Assembly: GCA_963758495.1 (NCBI GenBank)
Contig: CAVWVI010000005.1
Span: forward strand, 29,960-93,959
DNA length: 64,000 bases
From: Oligoflexia bacterium
Lineage (GTDB): Bacteria; Bdellovibrionota; UBA1018
Direction of reading: 5' to 3'
Below the pieces are notes generated by a model, which saw only the letters and a list, made by a program, of their open reading frames with translations, made no database searches and was not told where the DNA came from. A program made the translations under genes and the position numbers. Positions within the stretch are counted from its first letter, which is position 1, and each line of letters starts with the position of its first letter. Positions 9,380-22,166 of this stretch are shown here, in pieces.

Positions 9380-9440
9380 GAGTGATCATGATGAGTGATC
9401 ATGATGAGTGATCATGATGAGTGATTATGATGAGTTGTGA
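9380..9440. repeat. 13-bp tandem repeat (gagtgatcatgat) x4 plus partial, preceded by a 14-bp perfect palindrome tgagtcatgactca
   Basis: Read directly: 9380-9431 holds four consecutive 13-mers, the last with c->t. 9366-9379 is palindromic. Lies between convergent genes. Confidence 0.8.
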
Positions 9441-10441: not shown

Positions 10442-11434
10442 ATGCCAAAATTAGAACTGAAAGCAGTCCAACGGGAATTAGAACAAGGTGTCATCTGGCC
10501 GGTTTACTGGCTTTACGGTCCTGAAAAGTTAAAATCTCGAGAACTCTTAAAAAGAATTCGTTTTGCTGTTTTAGGCCAAGAGGGGTCAACTACTGCGGGA
10601 CAGTGGAATTTTAATGAAGAAGTTTTTGAAGGGAATGAGATCGATGCTACTTCGGTTTTAGATTCTGTTCGAAGCCCATCTTTAATAGGAGGAGTTCGTC
10701 TCATTTTAGTTCGAGAGGCTCATGCAATGAAGAATCCAGAGGTCTTGTCTGAACTCTTCGGGGCACCTACAAAGCTTTCAGAACTCATGAGTGTGTGTGT
10801 TTGTATTTCAAAGGACTTGGATGGAAGGAAGAAGTTTTCTAAGGCCCTCGTGGAGGGGGCTGCAGTGGTCTCTTGTGAGGAAGTCATCGAAGTCCAGCGG
10901 GAGCCTTGGATTCAGTACTTGGCCCAACGAAGAGGGGTGGAGCTGAATTCCACTTTAGTGACTCGGCTTTCAGGTCTTGATCCGTGGTCATTAGATATTA
11001 TTGAGCAAGAACTGGAAAAATTTGTGGTGGCAGGTTCTTCTCCTGATGTGATTTTGGATAGCCTCGGTCTTTCGGGGGTGACAGAGAGATTTATCGAAGA
11101 TTTCTTCTCTCGCGATCTAGAAGCAGCCCTTCCTCTCGTCAGTCGATTTGCAGACTCTCCAGACGAGTCCTTGCCCCTTCTTGGACTGATTGGATGGAAT
11201 GTCAGACAGCTTGCGATTTGGCTTGCGGACCGTGACAATGGCACTCGAAATTCAAAACTGAATCCCTATGCAGTGGAGCGATTTCGAAAATGGAGTCCCT
11301 TCTGGAAGCAACACGAAGTGATTGAGTTACAAGCTAGGCTTTCTGAGTTGGATTTTCAGCTTAAGCAAACTCCTCTTTTACCTCTGGGGTTGTGGAGTAG
11401 TTTGGTGCTTCGGTTTTGTAGTAAGAGTTCTTGA
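10442..11434 (+). CDS. holA: DNA polymerase III delta subunit
   Basis: 330 aa. N-terminal VYWLYGPEKLKSRELLKRIR and overall length/helical C-terminus match HolA. Synteny with lptE. Confidence 0.7.
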   Translation: MPKLELKAVQRELEQGVIWPVYWLYGPEKLKSRELLKRIRFAVLGQEGSTTAGQWNFNEEVFEGNEIDATSVLDSVRSPSLIGGVRLILVREAHAMKNPEVLSELFGAPTKLSELMSVCVCISKDLDGRKKFSKALVEGAAVVSCEEVIEVQREPWIQYLAQRRGVELNSTLVTRLSGLDPWSLDIIEQELEKFVVAGSSPDVILDSLGLSGVTERFIEDFFSRDLEAALPLVSRFADSPDESLPLLGLIGWNVRQLAIWLADRDNGTRNSKLNPYAVERFRKWSPFWKQHEVIELQARLSELDFQLKQTPLLPLGLWSSLVLRFCSKSS

Positions 11435-11486
11435 GAAGATATTCTTTAATAAAATCGAATAATTTATTACAAATTGTAATTTGCAA

Positions 11487-14144
11487 TTACTCACGCGAAT
11501 GGATCGGCAAATAAATACTCAGGTTAGATTCACTCGATGCAATCGACTTTCGTTTTGCTTTGGCAATGCTTGACCTAACAGTAGTTTGTAAGATGCGCTG
11601 AGCCTCTCTCCCGTTAAGAATTTCACCTTTGGATTGAGCAATGAGGTACTTAGAGGTAATGTTGTCCAAGAACTCTTTTTCATTTTCAATCTGGATCGAT
11701 TTCTTACTTTCTAATTCTTGCTCCTGAATGAGTCTTTTCAGGCCCAGCTGAATGATGGCTCTAAATTCAGTTTCGCTTGGAGGAAAGATGGGCACTGCTG
11801 CTTGAAAACGATCCAATACGGGAGCTGGAATGCCTCCTCGGATCAGTTCCTGAGTTAGTTCGTTCTTTGTTACTGGTTTGGTATTCGAATGCAGTAACTG
11901 CTGCGCGGCATTGGTGGTTGCAAAAATGTGTGAATTCTTAAAATTAAGAATGTTACTTGTTTTGCCTCCTGATTGGTTTGAATTGATATTTTCAGAGATG
12001 GTCATTTCGCCACTATCTAACAATGCCAATAGAGCCTGTTGTACAGTGGGAGCTGCTTTTTCTAATTCATCTAAAATAATGACTGAATAAGCATTTTTTC
12101 TGATCACTTCAGCCATTTCTCTTCGAAAGCCTTCAACGTTACCTTCAGCATATTTATTCATTTCAATTCTGACCGACGGCAAATTCATGCCTTTACCCAG
12201 CGTTCGGCCCAGTTCTGTTTTGCCAACTCCTGGAAGGCCAGCTACTAAGACCCTGAGTGCTGGTTTTGTTTTATCATGTGAATGGGTGAATCGTTGTTCA
12301 ACTAGTTCAAATAATATGTCTTTGGCGAATGTTTGCCCAATGAGTGTTTGATTCAAAAAATCAGGAAAGTTTTGAATTTTCTCTTCTACTTTATGAGTGT
12401 CAAAAAAAATGGGATCGATGTTATAGAGTCTACTTGCTGCTTGATTGATATCTTGAATGGTAATGTCGCTGACGTTGTCATCTTTTAATTGTTTAGTGGC
12501 GTATACTTCACTCAGGAGCCCAGTCGCTTTGGAAGGTTGGGAGCCTGAAGCGCTAAATTCGTTCGATAAATGAATGATGTGCTTCAATACATCTGCCTTA
12601 AGGATGGGCTTATTATAGCGCTTCGACCATCCATTTATATAATTGGGTAATTCTTCTTCACTGGGTTCCTCTAAATTAATAATCGAGAATCTTCTGAGTA
12701 ATGCCTGATCACCTCCAAAAGCTTCGTAAAACTCGGAGTGAGTTGATGTACCAATGAGGGTAACATCTCCCTTGGCTAAATAGGACTTCATGTGTTGGAA
12801 TAAGTCATTACTATCGCTCTTGGTGGTTCCAGCTCCTCTGAAGGAGTGAATTTCGTCCATGAAAATAATGGAGTTTTTATGAGAAGACATCATGGATAGG
12901 AATTTATTGAGTTTATCTTGAACTTGCCCCACAAATTGAGATTTACTATCTAAAAAAGTTCCAATATTAACTGATTTCACTAGAGTATTCTTTGGCAGTT
13001 CTGGAAATTTTCCATTTCCAATATCAGCAAGAAATTTCATTACTAACTGAGTTTTTCCTACTCCGGGATTTCCAAGAATCACTACATTTTTGCACTCTGG
13101 TTTTTGCAGTGATATTCTAATTTTATTTATCAAGTCCTGGTATGCTTTGGTAGATTCGAAGTGAAGTGAGTTATCTTTAGATTCTCCTTCATGTTTTTTT
13201 AGATCTGCTTCTTCTTTTTTAAGAATAATATCTACAATCTCACGTACGTCAAGCCTTTCTGCAGTCATGAGAGGGGTTTCTCCCGAAAATCCATGAGTAC
13301 TATTTAGGTTAGCTCCATGATTGATCAGAAGTTTTGCAATTTGAACATGTCCATTTTCGATAGCCAGTTGGAGAGCGGTTTCGTAGTAAGAGTTCTTATG
13401 GTTTACGTTAGCTCCTGATGTAAGTAGAAGTTCAACGATTTCAGTATGCCCCTTTTCGGCTGCCCAGATGAGAGGCGTTGTTCTATATGTACCAAAAGTA
13501 GTATTTAAGTCAGCCTGATGATTGATGAGGAGCTTTGCAATTTGGGCATGCCCATTATTAATTGCCACGATGAGAGCGGATTCGTCATACTCGTTCCTAA
13601 GGTTGACCTTAGCTCCTGATGTAAGTAGAAGTTCAACGATTTCAGTATGCCCGTTTTCGGCAGCTATGATTAAGGGCGTTTTTTTTCCATAATCTATTTT
13701 GTAATTTACATTGGCTCCAGCTTCGAGCAAGAGCTTTACCCTATTTGTGTCACCCTCTGCGGCAGCATTGTACAGAGATTTATCTTGTTGCTCATTTTGA
13801 TCCTTGAGTGATTGTACGGCAGTAGTGGCAGTGACACCCATAATACCACTCATGAAGGCACGTTTTTTAGTATTTCTCTGGTTTCTATATGAATCATTAT
13901 TTTGATTGTATTGATTTTGAGAATAAGTTCTTATTTTATTTATATGTAATGACTTACCTAAAGTTAGTTGTCGGCTGGGGGTGATGCGATTCAGGGTAGA
14001 TGGTAATTTAGACATTCTATTACTGATAGGCTTACTAAATAAGTTTATACCATCCTTGATGATGCCTGCTTTTGCGATATCTGAAAGGAGAAATGCACTT
14101 ACAAGAGTGGCGGTTATCGTCGACTTAGGTAATAATGCTTTCAT
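11487..14144 (-). CDS. ankyrin-repeat / ClpA-like double AAA+ ATPase fusion protein with N-terminal signal-like segment (paralog 1)
   Basis: 885 aa. N-terminal hydrophobic MKALLPKSTITATLVSAFLLSDIAKAG. At least five ankyrin repeats (TPLIIAAENGHTEIVELLLTSGAKVN...). D1: GNPGVGKTQL, IIFMDEIHSFRGAG, LLRRF. D2: LIGQ..A, VAGLPGVGKTEL, ILDELEKA, ATTN. No ClpB M-domain; no IGF/IGL ClpP loop seen. Confidence 0.7.
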   Translation of the reverse strand: MKALLPKSTITATLVSAFLLSDIAKAGIIKDGINLFSKPISNRMSKLPSTLNRITPSRQLTLGKSLHINKIRTYSQNQYNQNNDSYRNQRNTKKRAFMSGIMGVTATTAVQSLKDQNEQQDKSLYNAAAEGDTNRVKLLLEAGANVNYKIDYGKKTPLIIAAENGHTEIVELLLTSGAKVNLRNEYDESALIVAINNGHAQIAKLLINHQADLNTTFGTYRTTPLIWAAEKGHTEIVELLLTSGANVNHKNSYYETALQLAIENGHVQIAKLLINHGANLNSTHGFSGETPLMTAERLDVREIVDIILKKEEADLKKHEGESKDNSLHFESTKAYQDLINKIRISLQKPECKNVVILGNPGVGKTQLVMKFLADIGNGKFPELPKNTLVKSVNIGTFLDSKSQFVGQVQDKLNKFLSMMSSHKNSIIFMDEIHSFRGAGTTKSDSNDLFQHMKSYLAKGDVTLIGTSTHSEFYEAFGGDQALLRRFSIINLEEPSEEELPNYINGWSKRYNKPILKADVLKHIIHLSNEFSASGSQPSKATGLLSEVYATKQLKDDNVSDITIQDINQAASRLYNIDPIFFDTHKVEEKIQNFPDFLNQTLIGQTFAKDILFELVEQRFTHSHDKTKPALRVLVAGLPGVGKTELGRTLGKGMNLPSVRIEMNKYAEGNVEGFRREMAEVIRKNAYSVIILDELEKAAPTVQQALLALLDSGEMTISENINSNQSGGKTSNILNFKNSHIFATTNAAQQLLHSNTKPVTKNELTQELIRGGIPAPVLDRFQAAVPIFPPSETEFRAIIQLGLKRLIQEQELESKKSIQIENEKEFLDNITSKYLIAQSKGEILNGREAQRILQTTVRSSIAKAKRKSIASSESNLSIYLPIHSRE

Positions 14145-14447
14145 TTTAATGACCTTTTTTTACTTATTAATAATAGTGATGGCATTTATAATCTTTATTT
14201 CTTTATTATTCAAGTAAAATATAAGATAATGTGGGTAATAAGCCAAATGTCCGATTTTAGGACACCCACGAATCCAACTCGAACTAAAATATTGCATATT
14301 GAACATCAATAATTAAAATGAAGTGGCTATTTTTATGTGAAAAATTCATAAATCAAATAAGTTAAAGATATTTAGCTTGATGTAGGAGTGAGTTGAGTAA
14401 AATAGGCTAAAAATATACTTATTAAATTTAAGTTATTTTGAGGACTA

Positions 14448-15221
14448 ATGAGGATTGATATGAAAAAAATGGCAGATAGTTTTAAATCGAATCTTTTATT
14501 GGCGTGTGTTTTTTCTTTTGTAGGAGTCACGGTTTTTGCAAATCCAAGTGAATCCGTAGTCATTCGTCGGATCAACCAAGTTTTGAGAAACTGTGACGTT
14601 TTTACTCCAGTCCGATTAGATCCAAAATGGAAAAATCAGTGGAATCACGCAAGAAGTCAGCTAGCTTATTCTAGACTTGCTCAGAATATATTAGTGGCTA
14701 AGGCGACTTGTGGTGCTTATGCTACACCTACTGCTGCTGAACTGACTCAGTACTATAATGAGTTGGAGCCTTTTCGTAGGCTCAGAGAAACTCTCAGAGA
14801 CAGTGCTGAAATTGCTAAAGAAAGACTGATTCAAGATGCTCATTTATCAAAAGAAGAAATTAAGCAACTTGATGATGAGGCCGACATTCAAGAATGTGCG
14901 CTGAATGATAGTTTAGGACAGAGGGACGGCAAAGAGGGACTCTTTGTTGCGCTTGAAACTCAGATCGCAAATGCAAATGATTTTAGTAGTCAATTCGTTT
15001 CAGAAGAGGATAAAAGATTGGAAGACACTCGTAGTATTGCAAGAGAGTCCATTCAAAGTCTTTTACGTACGCCTATTCATGCTTATGAATTAGCCCGAAG
15101 TTGCGGCGACCTATTTCTCAATGCTGTTCGAACTCGAGCTAAAAATAAGGCTAAAGCAGCAAAGAAGGCTAAAGAGTTGGAGATTAGAAGATATCAGCAG
15201 ATCCTGGACGACGATTGCTGA
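14448..15221 (+). CDS. secreted hypothetical protein (signal peptide, coiled-coil, basic C-terminus)
   Basis: 257-aa ORF. Signal-like LLLACVFSFVGVTVFANPSES. Lys/Ala-rich C-terminal tail. No recognisable catalytic motif. Confidence 0.35.
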   Translation: MRIDMKKMADSFKSNLLLACVFSFVGVTVFANPSESVVIRRINQVLRNCDVFTPVRLDPKWKNQWNHARSQLAYSRLAQNILVAKATCGAYATPTAAELTQYYNELEPFRRLRETLRDSAEIAKERLIQDAHLSKEEIKQLDDEADIQECALNDSLGQRDGKEGLFVALETQIANANDFSSQFVSEEDKRLEDTRSIARESIQSLLRTPIHAYELARSCGDLFLNAVRTRAKNKAKAAKKAKELEIRRYQQILDDDC

Positions 15222-15402
15222 TTCTGAAGAAGTATCAGTTCCAAGAATACAAGGGTTTGAGCAGGAGCGCGTTCGAAAAACTGACAGATAATTAATGATC
15301 TATCTGGCGTCGTCCTGTGTGGATGGCGCCAGAAACGAACTCCTCTTGTGCCTCTAGGGTTGTGGAGTAGTTTGGTGCTTGGGTTTTGTAGTAAGAGTTG
15401 AT

Positions 15403-16765
15403 TGTGCGCCGGAAAAAAAGGAAAAGGTGGAGCCCTCCTTAAGGTGGCTGAGTACAGATTTCGATCACTGTGAAAGATATTCGGATCGGTGCTCCTATTG
15501 GGGTAAGGTCGAAGACATTGAATTTAAATACGATTTTGTGACTGCTTAGGATCGAGCAAAGGCTGAAGACCTGCATTCAGAGTCTTCTATGCAAGAAGAT
15601 CCTTTTATTCTGAGACAAAAGTGTTTCCACCCACCCTATTGCCCAAATGAAATGTGCAAGTTTCATCTTCCCTCCAATGAGAAGGATTCCAATTCTTTTT
15701 TTTGGTCAAATGGTTGGGCTAAAACTCGATGCTATCCTTACCGGGTTCGCCAATTTCGATGTCGTTCCTGCAAGAGAAATTTTCGGTATACTTATTTCAA
15801 GCTCGATTTTCGCGAAAAAAAACCTGGCTTAAACTGCAAGATTTTCAGTTATATGACGTGTGGAGTGTCCAATCGAGAAATTGCAAGAAGACTGGAGACT
15901 TCCGAACATCTCATCCGCCTCAGAGTGAGAAAATTGGTTCAGTGGGCGCTGATAAAACAAACAGAGCGCACCCAGGCGTTGAAGATCAGCGAGCCCCTCG
16001 TTTATGATGGCCTCGAAGCGTTTGCTAAAAGTCAGTATGATCCGAATCAAATCCAACAAGCTATCGGCAAGGAGTCTTTGTTTATTTATGACTTTAACTT
16101 CGCGCCACTTAATCGAAAAGGAAGGATGTCTCCAAGGCAAAAGCAAGTCCGACGGTTGACGGAAGAAAAAGAGGGGCGTTACCCGCCAAAAGCCATTCGA
16201 ATTAGCACGGTGGAGATCTTCTCTCGCCTCTATGAAAGAAGAGCGGATCTAGCTCAGCCCTTGGTGATTTATTCGGACGAACATTTTCAATATCGTAGAG
16301 CTGTTGAACGCGATTTGAAGGATCTTAAAATCCATCAAGTCACGGTATCTTCTAAGCAGACGCGGAATTATCAAAACTGTCTATTCAGTGTAAATCACGC
16401 GGATCTCTTAATTCGTCAGCATATGGGAGCGTTCAGTCGGGAAACCATCTGCTTTGCAAAAAACCACGCTCGAATGGTTGGAAAGTACGTCCTCTTCATG
16501 GTTTGGAAAAATTTCTTTCGGCCTCAATTTGTAAAGCCTCATAAGAAAGATCCAAAGTCTAACCAGAACACTCCAGCTATGAGGCTGGGCTTAACCAAGA
16601 GGGCCCTTGAGTTTTATGAATTTTTTGACATCAAAAGGACTTTAGCACAAATCAACCTGAATCGAGAGTGGACCTTGTTTCATGAAGATCAAGTATTTTA
16701 CCCCCGGTCCTTAGCTGGAGCATCGGCGTAATAGGGGGACATCATCCTGTGTGGACGGCGCACAA
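15403..16765 (+). mobile_element. IS1595-family-like insertion sequence (about 1.36 kb) with 10-bp terminal inverted repeats
   Basis: ttgtgcgccg at 15403-15412 and cggcgcacaa at 16756-16765 are perfect inverted repeats. They bracket a single transposase-like ORF. The size is typical of the IS1595 family. Confidence 0.45.
15589..16731 (+). CDS. IS1595-family (ISXO2-like) transposase: N-terminal zinc ribbon, HTH, DDE-like core
   Basis: 380 aa. CPNEMCKF...CRSCKRNF zinc-ribbon. HTH-like SNREIARRLETSEHLIRLRVRKL. VIYSDEHFQYRRAV resembles the IS1595 'IYTDEW..Y' motif. Downstream N..R motifs (NHADLLIRQHMG; NHARMVGKY). Confidence 0.5.
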   Translation: MQEDPFILRQKCFHPPYCPNEMCKFHLPSNEKDSNSFFWSNGWAKTRCYPYRVRQFRCRSCKRNFRYTYFKLDFREKKPGLNCKIFSYMTCGVSNREIARRLETSEHLIRLRVRKLVQWALIKQTERTQALKISEPLVYDGLEAFAKSQYDPNQIQQAIGKESLFIYDFNFAPLNRKGRMSPRQKQVRRLTEEKEGRYPPKAIRISTVEIFSRLYERRADLAQPLVIYSDEHFQYRRAVERDLKDLKIHQVTVSSKQTRNYQNCLFSVNHADLLIRQHMGAFSRETICFAKNHARMVGKYVLFMVWKNFFRPQFVKPHKKDPKSNQNTPAMRLGLTKRALEFYEFFDIKRTLAQINLNREWTLFHEDQVFYPRSLAGASA

Positions 16766-16812
16766 ATAAATTGACAACATGCCCATTTTATCTTACTTCC
16801 CCTGCTTAAGAA

Positions 16813-17409
16813 ATGGGGTGTGTGATGAAATTCAATAAAAGTACCTTAAAAGTGGCTCTAGGGTTATCGGTTTTAGCGTCGCAAACAGGGTGTATCTCTG
16901 CTCTGGTTTTTCCTCCTCTGATCATTCCAGGAGTGATTTTTTATGCTCTCGGAGTAGGAGAGCCTTTTGAAAGAGGTGAAGGCCTGAGATTTACAGGGGT
17001 CTTATTAGGCTCAAAAGATCCTGGTCATGCTGTGGCTTTAAATCAAATTCCTTTGGATGAGAGTATTGCACAAAAAGCTGGGGTGAGTGTTGAGGACATT
17101 GAAGATTACAATAATAACCTCAACCAGATTCGAACTGTTGCGCTCGAGTTGCAACAGGATATTCGTTCGCAACTCGCACGGTCTGAACTCAAGCACTATA
17201 CAAGAATGGATCAGCTCGCTCAGGATGTTCAGGTGGATTCACTTGCAAAGAAATACGGCTTTGGAAGTGGGCAGGAGTTTTTAGAAACGATGACTTCTCA
17301 ACATCTTTCAAATGAAAAGGTGCAGTCTTTTTCTGAAGCAACTCACCTTGAAGCCGCACAGGTCAAAATTCTGCTTCATTACGGATTTGGCGTTAAGATG
17401 ACTCGTTAG
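16813..17409 (+). CDS. hypothetical lipoprotein
   Basis: 198 aa. Lipobox-like LASQTGC within the signal peptide. No known motif. Confidence 0.35.
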   Translation: MGCVMKFNKSTLKVALGLSVLASQTGCISALVFPPLIIPGVIFYALGVGEPFERGEGLRFTGVLLGSKDPGHAVALNQIPLDESIAQKAGVSVEDIEDYNNNLNQIRTVALELQQDIRSQLARSELKHYTRMDQLAQDVQVDSLAKKYGFGSGQEFLETMTSQHLSNEKVQSFSEATHLEAAQVKILLHYGFGVKMTR

Positions 17410-17432
17410 TAGTGGTTAATTAGGAAATTGTT

Positions 17433-18638
17433 ATGCAAATAAAAACACTGGGTTCTTTAAGACGACACTTGGGTGCTGCAAGAAGGACGGTGTTTTTATT
17501 TGCATTTCTATTGAGTTCCGTTGCCTTTGGAATGGGCGGAAAGCTTCAAAAGTATGAATCTCAGCATCACTCTTCTAATTGGCAAGTAAAAACTCCCAAA
17601 GTAGTGATTGCCTTTGGAATGTTGGATAGCGGTTTGATCCAACGATATAAACGCTTTTCAAAAGATACTCTGGAAAAATATCTCAAAAGAGTCAATCCTC
17701 TGCTCCGTCTTGAAGTCATCGAGAAAGCTCAAAGTCAGGATGTAGTCCAAGTCTTAGCCGATAAAAGTACGGTGGGGTTCATCTTTATCAGTCATACTTA
17801 TAAGGCTAAAAACATCGATGCAGCCATCTCTATTGCTGCGGATGGACACCCACTTCCTCCAGATATCTTGTCGGCAGCGACTCCGTCTTTAAGATTTAGT
17901 AGCTTCTTGGGCTGTCATGGTCCTGAAATCATGAAAGAGTACGGTGTTGCTTATGAATATAAGCGTCTTTCTGGGAGTCATATTTTTTATTACAATAGAG
18001 ATGAGTTGCTTTCCGCTAATTTCATGTTTATTGATAATTTAAAAAAGTTATTGAAAAAGGAAATAAAAGATTTGGCGAGATTTGATCCTCGTTATTTTAT
18101 GAGCGGTCAAATACCTCATGAAGATGAGAACGGAAAACTGACAATCCGAGTGAAAGATGTTTATCCGGGTATCGAACCTCGATTTGTTTATCTGAATGGC
18201 CGAATTGTGGGGATGTTGGGTACAGAAAAAGGAAATTCCAATCAAAGCTTAAATTATGAGGAATTTACTTTTGAGGTGCCAGCCTATGCCTTGGAAACAA
18301 AGAAGGAGGGTCAACATCATGTTAAAATTCTTTCGAGTGAGATTTCTCCCGGTGCTTTAGCTGATAACTATTTGATCGAATCTGTCACTCTTGAAGCTCC
18401 CTTTGGAAAGCTAGAAAAGCATTATTCCCCGTCATGGCATATTGGAGATGCAGATGCTCCTCCTTCTATTGCTGACTTTAAAGTGGAGCTTCATGGATCA
18501 AAAAAGGAGCAAAAAAAACAACTTCTGGATCATATTCGAAAGTATATGGTCCAGCTTGAGTGGATGGATCGAAACCCCGAAGTCTGGGCAGCTTCACCTC
18601 TCAATGGACGTCGTATTTTTTCAGACGTGTTACAATAG
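17433..18638 (+). CDS. secreted hypothetical protein
   Basis: 401-aa ORF. N-terminal hydrophobic RTVFLFAFLLSSVAFGMGG. No recognisable domain. Confidence 0.35.
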   Translation: MQIKTLGSLRRHLGAARRTVFLFAFLLSSVAFGMGGKLQKYESQHHSSNWQVKTPKVVIAFGMLDSGLIQRYKRFSKDTLEKYLKRVNPLLRLEVIEKAQSQDVVQVLADKSTVGFIFISHTYKAKNIDAAISIAADGHPLPPDILSAATPSLRFSSFLGCHGPEIMKEYGVAYEYKRLSGSHIFYYNRDELLSANFMFIDNLKKLLKKEIKDLARFDPRYFMSGQIPHEDENGKLTIRVKDVYPGIEPRFVYLNGRIVGMLGTEKGNSNQSLNYEEFTFEVPAYALETKKEGQHHVKILSSEISPGALADNYLIESVTLEAPFGKLEKHYSPSWHIGDADAPPSIADFKVELHGSKKEQKKQLLDHIRKYMVQLEWMDRNPEVWAASPLNGRRIFSDVLQ

Positions 18639-18642
18639 GCTG

Positions 18643-21309
18643 TCATTCCCGCGCTTGGATCGGCAAATAAATACTCAGGTTAGACTCCTTCGATGCAATC
18701 GCCTTTCGTTTTGCTTTAGCAATGCTTGACCTAACGGTATGTTGTAAGATTCGCTGAGCTTCTCTCCCGTTAAGGATTTCACCTTTGGATTGAGCAATGA
18801 GGTACTCAGAGGTAATATTGTCTAAGAATTCTTTTTCATTTTCAATCTGGATCGATTTCTTACTTTCTAATTCTTGCTCCTGAATGAGTCTTCTCAGGCC
18901 CAGCTGAACGATGTCTCTAAATTCAGTTTCGCTTGGAGGAAAGATGGGCACTGCTGCTTGAAAACGATCCAATACGGGAGCTGGAATGCCTCCTCGGATC
19001 AGTTCCTGAGTCAGTTCGTTCTTTGTTACTGGTTTGGTATTCGAATGCAGTAACTGCTGTGCGGCATTGGTGGTCGCGAAAATATGTGAATTCTTAAAAT
19101 TAAGAGTGTTACTGGTTTTTCCGCCTGTTTGGGTTGAGTTGATATTTTCGGAGATGGTCATTTCGCCACTATCTAACAACGCCAATAGCGCCTGCTGTAC
19201 AATAGAATCAGCTTTTTCTAATTCGTCTAAAATAAGGACTGAATAGGCATTTTTTCTGATAGCTTCAGCCATTTCTCGTCGAAATCCTTCAACGTTACCT
19301 TCAGCATATTTATTCATTTCAATTCTGACAAACGGCAAATTCATGCCTTTCGCCAGCGCTCGACCCAGTTCCGTTTTACCAACTCCTGGAAGGCCAGCCA
19401 CCAAAATCCTCAGTGCTGGTTTTGTTTTGTCGTGTGATTGTGTGAAGCGTTGTTCAACGAGTTCAAATAAAGTATCTTGAGCAAGTTTTTGCCCGATGAG
19501 AGTTTGATTCAGAAAATCAGGAAATCTCTGGAGTTTTTCTTCTATTTTATGGGTGTCAAAAAAAGTGGGATCGATGTTGTAGAGTCTGCTTGCTGCTTGA
19601 TTGATATCTTGAATGGTAATGTCACCGATGGTGTCGCCTTCTAACTGTTTGGTAGCGTATACTTCACTCAGGAGCCCAGTCGCTTTGGAAGGCTGTGAAC
19701 CTGAAGCGCTAAATTCGTTCGATAAATGAATGATGTGCTTCAATACATCTTCCTTAAGGATGGGTTTGTTATAACGCTTCGACCATGCGTTCATATAACT
19801 GGGTAATTCTTCTTCATCAGGTTCCTCTAAGTTAATGATCGAGAATCTTCTGAGTAATGCTTGATCACCTCCAAAAGCTTCGTAAAACTCGGAGTGAGTT
19901 GATGTACCAATGAGGGTAACATCTCCCTTGGCTAAATAGGACTTCATGTGTTGGAATAAGTCATTACTATCGCTCTTGGTGGTTCCAGCTCCTCTGAAGG
20001 AGTGAATTTCATCCATGAAAATAATGGAGTTTTTACGTGAAGACATCATGGATAGGAATTTATTGAGTTTATCTTGAACTTGCCCCACAAATTGAGATTT
20101 ACTATCTAAAAAAGTTCCAATATTAACTGATTTTACTAGAGTATTCTTTGGCAGTTCTGGAAATTTTCCATTTCCAATATCAGCAAGAAATTTCATTACT
20201 AACTGAGTTTTTCCTACGCCAGCATTTCCAAGAATAACTACATTTTTGCACTCTGGTTTTTGCAGTGATTTTCTAATTTTATCTACCACTTGCTGGTACG
20301 CCTTTGTGGATTCGAATTGATCTGAGTCTTTTTGAAGATTTTGCTTAGATTCCAAGGATTCAGAGAGTGATTCATCTTGAGCTTCTCTTAGAGATTGATT
20401 CGAATCGTCAGCCTCGTCTTCTTCATGGGTGCGTGATGGAGAGTTTTCAATAGGTGAAAGTTCTTGAGGATCTGCTCCTTTTTCAAGAAGTGCATCTACG
20501 ATCTCACGTTGGTCATATCTATGTGCGGACAGGAGAGGGGTCTCTCTAAAGATTCCTCCTTTAAAATTTAAGTCAGCCCCATGATTGATGAGGAGCTTTG
20601 CAATTTGAACATGGCCGCGTTCGATTGCTTCTAGGAGAGCGGTCATTTTGAACATGCCCTGGTGATTTACATGAGCTCCTGCTGCGAGTAGAAGTTTTAC
20701 GATTTCGATATGACCGTTTTCGGCTGCCCAGATGAGAGGGGTCATTTTGAGCTTGCCCTGGAGATTTACATGAGCTCCTGCTGCGAGTAGAAGTTTTACG
20801 ATTTCTGTATGATCGTTTTCGGCTGCCTCCATGAGAGGCGTGGTATTTGTAATGTCTGACTGACGATTTACGTCGGCTCCCGCTTCGAGCAGGAGTGTTA
20901 CCTTTTTGGTATCACCCTTTGTGGCTGCCAATCGAAGAGATCTATCTTTTTGATCTTGATCAGTGTTTTTAAAAGAGATGTCGTTGCTTGGACTGTTTTT
21001 GACTTTTGAGTAGAGAGGTTGAGGTTGAAGATACCCAAATAAGTTAAATTTATAAGTTGAATTTTCAGGTTTTTCTGAAGTGGGGTGATCGGTAGAGAAA
21101 TTTCTGAATGAAGGGAAGAAGGGGTGTTGAAACTTATAATTAAAATGAGGTTTTTTAGATGGGAATTTGAATGTGCTCTTGTTTACTTTGTTTTTAAATA
21201 ATTTTAAGCCGTTATTAAAGGGATTTGCATTTGCCACGTTCGATAACAGAAGGGTGCTGACGAGAGTAGTGATTGTTATGGATTTAGACAACGGCTCTTT
21301 CATATTCAT
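18643..21309 (-). CDS. ankyrin-repeat / ClpA-like double AAA+ ATPase fusion protein with N-terminal signal-like segment (paralog 2)
   Basis: 888 aa. C-terminal about 560 aa nearly identical to the 11487..14144 product (same Walker/sensor motifs). N-terminal signal-like ITITTLVSTLLLSNVANA. Ankyrin repeats diverged. Extra acidic Ser/Glu/Asp-rich linker. Confidence 0.7.
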   Translation of the reverse strand: MNMKEPLSKSITITTLVSTLLLSNVANANPFNNGLKLFKNKVNKSTFKFPSKKPHFNYKFQHPFFPSFRNFSTDHPTSEKPENSTYKFNLFGYLQPQPLYSKVKNSPSNDISFKNTDQDQKDRSLRLAATKGDTKKVTLLLEAGADVNRQSDITNTTPLMEAAENDHTEIVKLLLAAGAHVNLQGKLKMTPLIWAAENGHIEIVKLLLAAGAHVNHQGMFKMTALLEAIERGHVQIAKLLINHGADLNFKGGIFRETPLLSAHRYDQREIVDALLEKGADPQELSPIENSPSRTHEEDEADDSNQSLREAQDESLSESLESKQNLQKDSDQFESTKAYQQVVDKIRKSLQKPECKNVVILGNAGVGKTQLVMKFLADIGNGKFPELPKNTLVKSVNIGTFLDSKSQFVGQVQDKLNKFLSMMSSRKNSIIFMDEIHSFRGAGTTKSDSNDLFQHMKSYLAKGDVTLIGTSTHSEFYEAFGGDQALLRRFSIINLEEPDEEELPSYMNAWSKRYNKPILKEDVLKHIIHLSNEFSASGSQPSKATGLLSEVYATKQLEGDTIGDITIQDINQAASRLYNIDPTFFDTHKIEEKLQRFPDFLNQTLIGQKLAQDTLFELVEQRFTQSHDKTKPALRILVAGLPGVGKTELGRALAKGMNLPFVRIEMNKYAEGNVEGFRREMAEAIRKNAYSVLILDELEKADSIVQQALLALLDSGEMTISENINSTQTGGKTSNTLNFKNSHIFATTNAAQQLLHSNTKPVTKNELTQELIRGGIPAPVLDRFQAAVPIFPPSETEFRDIVQLGLRRLIQEQELESKKSIQIENEKEFLDNITSEYLIAQSKGEILNGREAQRILQHTVRSSIAKAKRKAIASKESNLSIYLPIQARE

Positions 21310-21749: not shown

Positions 21750-22166
21750 TTACGGAGAAGTAGGTGGAGTTCTATACCTAAAGGCAACGCGCGCATCAGG
21801 TAAACTCAGTGCAAACAGGGGGAAGCTATTTATACAGGAAGCATCGTGAAACTTCATGAACTCCACTACTATTCCCTCAAAACCTGGAGTCTCCTCGAGT
21901 TTATCCCATCTTCTTACATCCCTGTTTTTTTCGTAACTGGCTATTAATATCTGATAAAGGGCGGTTGGATTGCAATTTGTCTCTACATTAACCTGAGCGG
22001 CTATTGCCCCCGTGCATCGCTCGGTTTGAAATGCACTGAACGCAGAGGAAAAAATTTCCCGAAAGATTTCTGTTTCCAAGTATTCATCGAATGCAAAACT
22101 TGGTACAGAACCGAAAATAATAAAAGCGCATATTGCTAATTTTTTCAAATAATTTGTAAAAAACAT
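21750..22166 (-). CDS. small secreted hypothetical protein
   Basis: 138 aa with an N-terminal signal-like segment (LAICAFIIFGSVPSFAFDEY). No motif recognised. Confidence 0.3.
   Translation of the reverse strand: MFFTNYLKKLAICAFIIFGSVPSFAFDEYLETEIFREIFSSAFSAFQTERCTGAIAAQVNVETNCNPTALYQILIASYEKNRDVRRWDKLEETPGFEGIVVEFMKFHDASCINSFPLFALSLPDARVAFRYRTPPTSP

Follow-up and report, generated by a model that had tools for sequence, protein, structure and literature searches.

A pair of ankyrin-bearing Clp-like ATPases with predicted signal peptides, from an apparently undescribed Hsp100 branch

The two paralogous genes that we describe here lie in a stretch of 64,000 nucleotides from an Oligoflexia bacterium (contig CAVWVI010000005.1, positions 29,960 to 93,959; hereafter the window), and encode proteins in which a double AAA+ ATPase of the Clp type is preceded by ankyrin repeats and a predicted signal peptide. 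The proteins, termed A and B, are members of an apparently undescribed monophyletic branch of class-I Hsp100/Clp proteins that bear signal peptides, comprising at least 140 sequence clusters. Judged from the sequences, the β-rich N-domain usual within this family has been swapped for ankyrin repeats in this genome alone, and the pair is best read as an old duplication that has been partly homogenised by gene conversion. Our overall explanation, to which we give about even chances, is that A and B are Sec-exported, stand-alone remodellers of the Hsp100 type, with targets defined by their ankyrin arrays.

Both genes are located on the minus strand, where their open reading frames of 885 and 888 amino acids occupy exactly the coordinates given in an original prediction made from the DNA alone. 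Their component parts are listed below in window coordinates.

11487–14144, minus strand: gene A, 885 amino acids, comprising signal peptide, basic linker, six ankyrin repeats, D1 AAA+ and D2 AAA+ (open reading frame; Pfam Ank, AAA and AAA_2)
14067–14144, minus strand: predicted Sec signal peptide of A, residues 1–26, MKALLPKSTITATLVSAFLLSDIAKA with G following the cleavage site (layout of n-, h- and c-regions in the sequence; family-wide heuristic with controls)
13800–14066, minus strand: basic low-complexity linker of A, residues 27–115, with 15 K+R against 3 D+E and a predicted local distance difference test score (pLDDT) below 40
13245–13799, minus strand: ankyrin array of A, residues ~116–300, five strong repeats and one degenerate cap (Pfam; repeat hidden Markov model, HMM)
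12465–13142, minus strand: D1 AAA+ module of A, residues ~335–560 (conservation of family motifs; alignment to ClpA; AlphaFold2 (AF2) pLDDT of 80–90)
11490–12464, minus strand: D2 AAA+ module and small domain of A, residues ~561–885 (alignment to ClpA; family motifs; AF2 model; fold comparison)
11455–13138, minus strand: high-identity block in copy A, the ATPase half and 32 nucleotides of 3′ flank, a mosaic with about 92% nucleotide identity to 18611–20294
18643–21309, minus strand: gene B, 888 amino acids, comprising signal peptide, basic linker, five ankyrin repeats, acidic linker, D1 and D2 (open reading frame; Pfam)
21226–21309, minus strand: predicted signal peptide of B, residues 1–28, ending ITITTLVSTLLLSNVANA before N (N-terminus MNMKEPLSKSITITTLVSTLLLSNVANA, then N; layout of n-, h- and c-regions; family-wide heuristic)
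20470–20961, minus strand: ankyrin array of B, residues ~117–280, four strong repeats and one degenerate (Pfam; repeat HMM)
20299–20469, minus strand: acidic linker of B, residues ~281–337, not present in A (pairwise alignment; 19 D+E in residues 270–340)
18611–20294, minus strand: high-identity block in copy B (nucleotide alignment; synonymous divergence)

The N-termini of both proteins have the layout of a Sec signal peptide cleaved by signal peptidase I, that is a positive n-region, a hydrophobic core of 7–15 residues and small residues at positions –3 and –1. Each opens with a basic n-region, has a core of about 12 residues and closes on AxA. The charges in A are K2 and K7, its core is TITATLVSAFLL, and the segment ends SDIAKA, so that cleavage is expected between AKA and G. 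The corresponding elements of B are K4 and K9, the core ITITTLVSTLLL and the end SNVANA, with cleavage expected between ANA and N. The likelier start of B is a second ATG at position 21303, giving a protein of 886 amino acids; it has the better spacing from GAGG and agrees with the database protein P0002. Residues 27–115 of both copies contain 14–15 K+R against 3–4 D+E, and are modelled as disordered with pLDDT below 40. Directly past the predicted cleavage site the two proteins have a short motif in common, DGINLFSKP in A and NGLKLFKNK in B (residues ~27–40, window ~14020–14066 and ~21180–21225), around which the linkers are otherwise basic and cannot be aligned between A and B. A function as a pro-peptide or secondary sorting signal is possible.

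The central and C-terminal parts of the proteins are readily assigned. Ank, Ank_2 and related Pfam models score far above their cutoffs in both (138 and 115 bits for Ank_2), and AAA (PF00004) and AAA_2 (PF07724) are likewise present in each. The repeats were counted using an HMM built from the window's own repeats; the original prediction of at least five in each protein holds for A, and is generous for B. Two of the repeats of A form an internal tandem duplication of 201 nucleotides, at 13267–13668. The D1 module of A contains the Walker A sequence GNPGVGKT, the pore loop SQFVG, the Walker B sequence IIFMDEIH, sensor-1 T468 and the arginine finger R485, while D2 has Walker A GLPGVGKT, Walker B ILDELEKA, sensor-1 N745 and the arginine finger R779. 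In A and B the catalytic residues of both rings are intact, and so is the aromatic pore loop of D1 (QFVG).

What kind of ATPase is this? From its sequence the closest canonical relative is ClpA, and yet A and B are not ClpA. The best NCBIfam match of each is the ClpA model TIGR02639, which has a cutoff of 993 bits and which they match at 209 and 212 bits; a second ClpA model, PRK11034, gives 137–140 bits against 1350. The best match in the PDB is again ClpA, with E = 4e-40 (structures 1R6B, 6UQE and 6W1Z), and Foldseek places the predicted fold with the protomers of ClpC, ClpA and ClpB at a template modelling score of about 0.7 over roughly 565 columns. Like ClpA, A and B have two AAA+ modules at the same spacing with no M-domain, an aromatic pore loop in D1 and conserved catalytic residues. 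They differ from ClpA in having a signal peptide, in lacking Clp_N, the GYVG loop of D2 and the IGL loop, and in falling into a separate clade. Clp_N (PF02861) does not appear in the top 25 Pfam families listed for either protein, and the ankyrin repeats sit in its place. The pore loop of D2 has been deleted, leaving a gap of 11+2 residues in the alignment with ClpA. In addition, the loop between sensor-1 and the arginine finger of D2 is short, at 28 amino acids, and in neither protein does it contain the IGF or IGL tripeptide for docking onto ClpP. The distance from Walker A to Walker A is ~275–280 amino acids in A, B and most other family members (85 of 108 in all), and therefore offers no room for the M-domain of ClpB. 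The ClpB/Hsp104 model gives 152–157 bits against a cutoff of 1232. The original prediction had anticipated much of this. Its placing of ankyrin repeats in the position of Clp_N, with neither M-domain nor ClpP tripeptide, is confirmed, and its ClpA-type D1 and D2 are correct in motifs and catalytic residues, the deleted GYVG loop being the part that fails. Of the profiles it named, Ank, AAA and AAA_2 were all found; ClpB_D2-small, like AAA_lid_9, is missing from the list of the 25 best Pfam families of each protein.

How general is this architecture? A homology search with the whole protein is swamped by eukaryotic and bacterial ankyrin proteins, and the ATPase half was used instead, in an exhaustive HMMER scan of 1.84 billion representatives. 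About 140 clusters of equal layout rank above the first genuine ClpA, with an N-region of roughly 240–480 amino acids (up to 800) preceding D1 and D2. Members score 680–860 bits against a family profile, A and B 679–693, and canonical Clp proteins 431 or less; this profile search was made from an alignment of 117 family sequences, and since its word index returned mostly the abundant ClpA/B/C it was used for the score gap. When placed with ClpA/B/C in a neighbour-joining tree, a fast distance method, the family is monophyletic in 100 of 100 bootstraps, and A and B together are the sister of P0121, with which they share 43–45% identity. The earlier suggestion of a new Hsp100 subclass is thus borne out at the level of a whole family standing apart from ClpA/B/C. 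No Pfam or NCBIfam model captures this signal-peptide-bearing Clp-like family, and full-text literature searches on secreted or periplasmic AAA+/Clp proteins in predatory bacteria turned up no account of it.

The motor is well conserved across the 117 aligned members. The Walker A lysine is present in 114–117 of them, the Walker B acidic residues (D/E) in 108–115 and the arginine fingers of the two rings in 110 and 116, and sensor-1 is kept in both rings. The D1 pore loop has Y, F or W followed by x-G, with the glycine present in 116 of 117, and the D2 pore-loop region is short throughout. The N-domain usual in the family has no match in Pfam. It is marked by the motifs FxF.NG, GETF..R.DG and DGIL…R.IDL, in place of which A and B have ankyrin repeats. 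For P0121 this domain is β-rich in the AF2 model, which was built from an alignment of four sequences and has pLDDT mostly 25–75, too weak for a fold search. Among 151 proteins ankyrin repeats occur only in A, B and P0264. The latter, of 1335 amino acids on a 13.7-kb Logan contig, combines three AAA-type modules with ankyrin repeats and an N-terminus that resembles a signal; it groups with the canonical Clp proteins and contains AAA_lid_9 and ClpB_D2-small, so that its ankyrin–Clp fusion is evidently an independent one. At the opposite end of the protein, a lone cysteine in the last 16 residues, as part of a C-x-x-L-[LF] tail, is found in 69–75% of the family and is absent in A and B, which end SIYLPIHSRE and SIYLPIQARE, respectively. 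Neither has a tail of any docking type, be it the lone cysteine, a terminal IGF or an HbYX-like end.

The signal peptide is no oddity of these two genes. The Sec-like N-terminus was correctly recognised in the original prediction, and it turns out to be a trait of the whole family. By a strict heuristic of our own, signal-peptide-like N-termini are found in 96 of 143 family members (at least 67%), compared with 2 of 115 ClpA/B/C controls (1.7%), and many of the members that were scored negative show a signal peptide on inspection or have a truncated start. In length the hydrophobic core has a median of 11 residues, with only 3% of members reaching 19 or more, and is thus too short for a membrane anchor. 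The n-region carries a net positive charge in 98 of 136 members, and for 100 of 136 the ten residues that follow the uncharged stretch have a net charge of zero or below. This pattern of charge and length is that expected of a Sec signal that is cleaved off, and not of a membrane anchor. The ATPase part contains 0.18 cysteines per 100 amino acids against 0.53 in the controls, or one third, which we regard as a weak sign of an oxidising location.

The relationship between the two copies is different in their two halves. Pairwise alignment, as proposed in the original prediction, maps a sharp breakpoint in identity close to codon 335, at gene nucleotide ~1007 (window ~13138 in A and ~20294 in B). 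The C-terminal 551–556 amino acids are 92% identical in protein and about 92% in nucleotide sequence, while upstream of gene position ~1000 the nucleotide identity is about 70% or less. Within the ATPase half the identity ranges from 80 to 100% per 60 nucleotides, with stretches of complete identity up to about 240 nucleotides long; the earlier description of some 560 almost identical residues was thus right in substance and slightly overstated. The similarity stops 32 nucleotides beyond the stop codon, and the flanks are otherwise unrelated.

Nei–Gojobori estimates of nonsynonymous (dN) and synonymous (dS) divergence between the copies give dN = 0.042, dS = 0.26 and dN/dS = 0.16 for the ATPase half, the last indicating purifying selection on both engines. 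For the ankyrin region dN = 0.31 and dS = 0.74, the short linker has a dS of 1.2, and the region of signal peptide and basic linker is saturated. Taken in segments of 50 codons the dS inside the ATPase half is patchy, varying from 0.03 to 1.18, and this points to an old duplication, parts of which gene conversion has since overwritten. A single recent tandem duplication was rejected, given this patchiness inside the ATPase block and values outside it that are either saturated or no lower than 0.74; of the two origins initially offered, recent duplication or gene conversion, the second is therefore retained. The ankyrin arrays have diverged independently, each copy with its own repeat duplications, while the ATPase halves were being homogenised. 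These values agree with the earlier view of a variable targeting module on a conserved engine, and the acidic linker noted as an extra element of copy B is indeed found there.

The genes lie within an otherwise ordinary segment of Gram-negative chromosome. GGT, NadB, Alr, LptB, LptE and HolA are followed by an islet of lower G+C content at about 11.4–22.2 kb, past which come HiPIP, an M28 peptidase, glycogen enzymes, GreA, HemH, TrmD, AccD, LptD, BacA and a TonB receptor. The islet contains A, four open reading frames that belong to no family, B, and a small signal-bearing reading frame. The intervening frames form one further feature.

14448–18638, plus strand: four open reading frames between A and B with no Pfam family, three having signal- or lipoprotein-like N-termini (open reading frames; Pfam)

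The three in question, at 14448–15221, 16813–17409 and 17433–18638 on the plus strand, as well as the frame at 21750–22166 on the minus strand, all have signal- or lipoprotein-like N-termini; they have no match in Pfam, NCBIfam or PADLOC, and no homologue in any of the loci of relatives that were compared. The remaining frame (15589–16731, plus strand) encodes 380 amino acids with a cysteine-rich N-terminus and without a Pfam match. A faint similarity to an IS1-family transposase, 22 bits against a cutoff of 100, suggests that it may be a degenerate mobile-element gene. In the intergenic DNA between the paralogs, at 15333–15399, is a copy of 67 nucleotides of the 3′ end of holA (11363–11429) that is 91% identical to it, and appears to be a remnant of a rearrangement or of segmental duplication within the low-GC islet. 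Outside the islet, the frame at 34449–37049 (plus strand, 866 amino acids) has weak Pfam signals resembling tyrosine phosphatase and protein or PI3/4 kinase, with no match in NCBIfam, and may be a eukaryote-like signalling or effector protein. Rfam finds a single tRNA in the window and nothing else, and a scan for promoters and terminators gave counts at or below those expected from shuffled sequence. An anti-phage defence system was considered and rejected; PADLOC returns only generic matches to the ankyrin and AAA domains, and none for the neighbouring frames.

Some relatives provide further context. The scan with a single protein gave one true relative with a taxon label, which comes from an uncultured Bacteriovoracaceae metagenome-assembled genome, a predator, and is 40% identical. 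This closest relative with an assigned genome, P0239 (locus L003, 503–3910), has 1135 amino acids and, as judged by eye, seems to contain two tandem β-rich N-domains with a linker rich in serine, alanine and lysine between them. Two further relatives adjoin genes for DUF4423, which is expanded in Bdellovibrionota. The gene for P0240 (locus L007, 8001–10565; GCA_900143125.1, FRDC01003219.1) is found between fusA and rpsJ in the str/S10 ribosomal-protein cluster, in the usual place of tuf, with ClpX and Lon upstream on the same contig.

Outside the bacterial Clp proteins the closest parallel is Skd3, or human CLPB, of the mitochondrial intermembrane space, whose ankyrin domain is needed for activity (PMC7343390). 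As in A and B, a targeting signal and a linker or hydrophobic stretch are followed by ankyrin repeats replacing the N-domain and by an Hsp100 ATPase, and Skd3 is a stand-alone machine working outside the main cytosol. It differs in having a single nucleotide-binding domain of the NBD2 type with an essential GYVG loop (PMC7343390), where A and B have both D1 and D2 and lack GYVG. No Skd3 structure is found among the PDB sequence matches at E ≤ 1e-10, which suggests that the ankyrin fusion is convergent. A second analogue, like Skd3 also for the inferred site of action, is Plasmodium HSP101, a class-I Hsp100 that enters the secretory pathway via an N-terminal signal, acts outside the parasite that makes it, and is detected as a homologue of A and B in the PDB with E = 8e-27. 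As part of PTEX (PDB 6E10 and 6E11) it is positioned on top of the translocon pore at the membrane of the parasitophorous vacuole, threading cargo with ATP (PMC6550532). HSP101 is eukaryotic, has a canonical N-domain and an M-domain, and docks onto PTEX150/EXP2, whereas A and B have no M-domain. Lastly, ankyrin repeats are combined with an export signal in the bacterial proteins Bd3460 of Bdellovibrio (PMC4686830) and RARP-1 of Rickettsia (bioRxiv 10.1101/2022.02.23.481736), which are Sec-exported to the periplasm and act in the envelope; unlike A and B they are small binding proteins with no ATPase.

If A and B are exported, the proteins would pass through Sec, be cleaved by signal peptidase I and then assemble as hexamers. 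The ankyrin array would pick out a protein partner or substrate, which D1 would grip and pull using ATP, and D2 would hydrolyse ATP as an assembly or power ring and not as a gripping ring. With two paralogs, a single engine would be directed to two separate targets. The lack of both the ClpP loop and the M-domain suggests stand-alone remodellers or unfoldases rather than partners of a protease or of DnaK. The requirement for ATP means that the site of action would probably be an ATP-containing compartment outside the cytoplasm of the producer, such as an invaded prey or host cell.

A number of observations weigh against this explanation. The periplasm of Gram-negative bacteria contains no ATP, so that an exported ATPase requires a source of ATP that is unexplained. 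The signal peptides were called using our own heuristic and not a trained predictor. The loss of the D2 pore loop could mean that the proteins do not thread substrates at all. An IGF-type tripeptide is found at the position of the ClpP-docking loop in 25–29 of 99 relatives (P0078, P0244 and P0276 among them), and others have a C-terminal IGF or MGF (P0321, P0371 and P0310) or HbYX-like ends such as …SMYN, …GMYQ and …PLYL (P0292, P0366 and P0326). Such docking motifs hint at a ring partner, and the known partners of this kind are cytoplasmic. There is no conserved gene neighbourhood, the contexts of four relatives (L001/L002, L003, L006 and L007) sharing nothing with each other or with the islet. 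Finally, the predatory lifestyle is an extrapolation, as the relatives behind it share 40% identity at most. The pairing of a signal peptide with ring-docking motifs in the same relatives is an unexplained observation in its own right.

The main rival is a Clp-like unfoldase that stays in the cytoplasm or is tethered to the inner membrane, the N-terminal segment being an uncleaved anchor or unused; the rings would remain with ATP and ClpP, and the ankyrin repeats would recruit substrates close to the membrane. Such a location would readily satisfy the need of the intact catalytic motifs for ATP, and would be consistent with the canonical Clp protomer fold and with the docking motifs of the relatives, both those in the loop and those at the C-terminus. 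Yet the short core, positive n-region, neutral or acidic flank and AxA ends predict an N-in/C-out orientation with cleavage, the depletion of cysteine fits an oxidising compartment, and A and B themselves lack any docking motif; we therefore consider this rival unlikely, if a serious contender. Less probable still is an effector delivered into a eukaryotic cell, where the ankyrin repeats would bind host proteins to be unfolded or disaggregated by the engine. Ankyrin repeats are common in host-interacting bacteria, and at the level of the repeats NCBIfam detects a weak similarity to the Dot/Icm ankyrin effectors of Legionella; the host cytosol would provide ATP, and the 866-residue reading frame with faint eukaryote-like phosphatase and kinase signals is nearby. 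However, the ankyrin matches are generic and far below every effector cutoff, the family at large has no ankyrin repeats and its sole labelled relative is from a predator of bacteria, for which the targets would be bacterial and not eukaryotic. Sec-exported periplasmic ankyrin proteins with roles in the envelope do exist (PMC4686830; bioRxiv 10.1101/2022.02.23.481736). Moreover, the window contains no genes for a secretion system, and with its glycogen metabolism, TonB receptor and Lpt system it resembles the chromosome of a free-living Gram-negative bacterium.

It is also conceivable that the two copies, or their mosaic identity, arose by mis-assembly of a metagenome, in which strain variants or a collapsed repeat were stitched together. 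The contig, of 164.8 kb, comes out of a metagenome-type assembly. For the same organism there is an independent Logan assembly (run ERR11523676, L008), which ends at about window position 9407, some 2 kb upstream of gene A, and in Logan A and B are absent while their neighbours are present, showing that the region of the paralogs is hard to assemble from those reads; the identical stretches of up to about 240 nucleotides could confuse short-read assemblers. Against this, the N-terminal halves, linkers and numbers of ankyrin repeats differ between the copies and their flanks are unrelated, both reading frames are intact and under purifying selection, and the divergence is spread over the entire ATPase half rather than placed at one junction. 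An artefact of this kind we regard as very improbable.

The broader significance of A and B as exported remodellers lies in the family to which they belong. This is a large and conserved group with intact motors, nearly all of which appear to have Sec signals, and it would therefore either break the rule that links such motors to compartments containing ATP or act inside prey or host cells. The prevailing view restricts energy-dependent protein unfolding to compartments that contain ATP, and we know of no envelope chaperone of Gram-negative bacteria that works with ATP. The motor itself has an unusual layout, the gripping loop being kept in D1 and lost in D2. The pair is a third, independent replacement of an Hsp100 N-domain by ankyrin repeats, after Skd3 and P0264, and provides a natural example of one engine with two recognition modules that is kept alike by gene conversion. 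Tentatively, and as a possibility that we ourselves find doubtful, A and B together with their family may be the first bacterial ATP-driven Hsp100 unfoldases to act outside the cytoplasm of the producer. Predatory (or host-invading) bacteria would export them through Sec and employ them in the invaded cell, which offers ATP, for taking apart protein assemblies of the prey or host. Some members might then dock via IGF or HbYX tails, their ring partner being exported as well, and in this genome the recognition domain would have been exchanged for ankyrin repeats, giving two paralogs for two targets. With a family of this kind, the use of ATP beyond the cytoplasm of the cell becomes directly testable.

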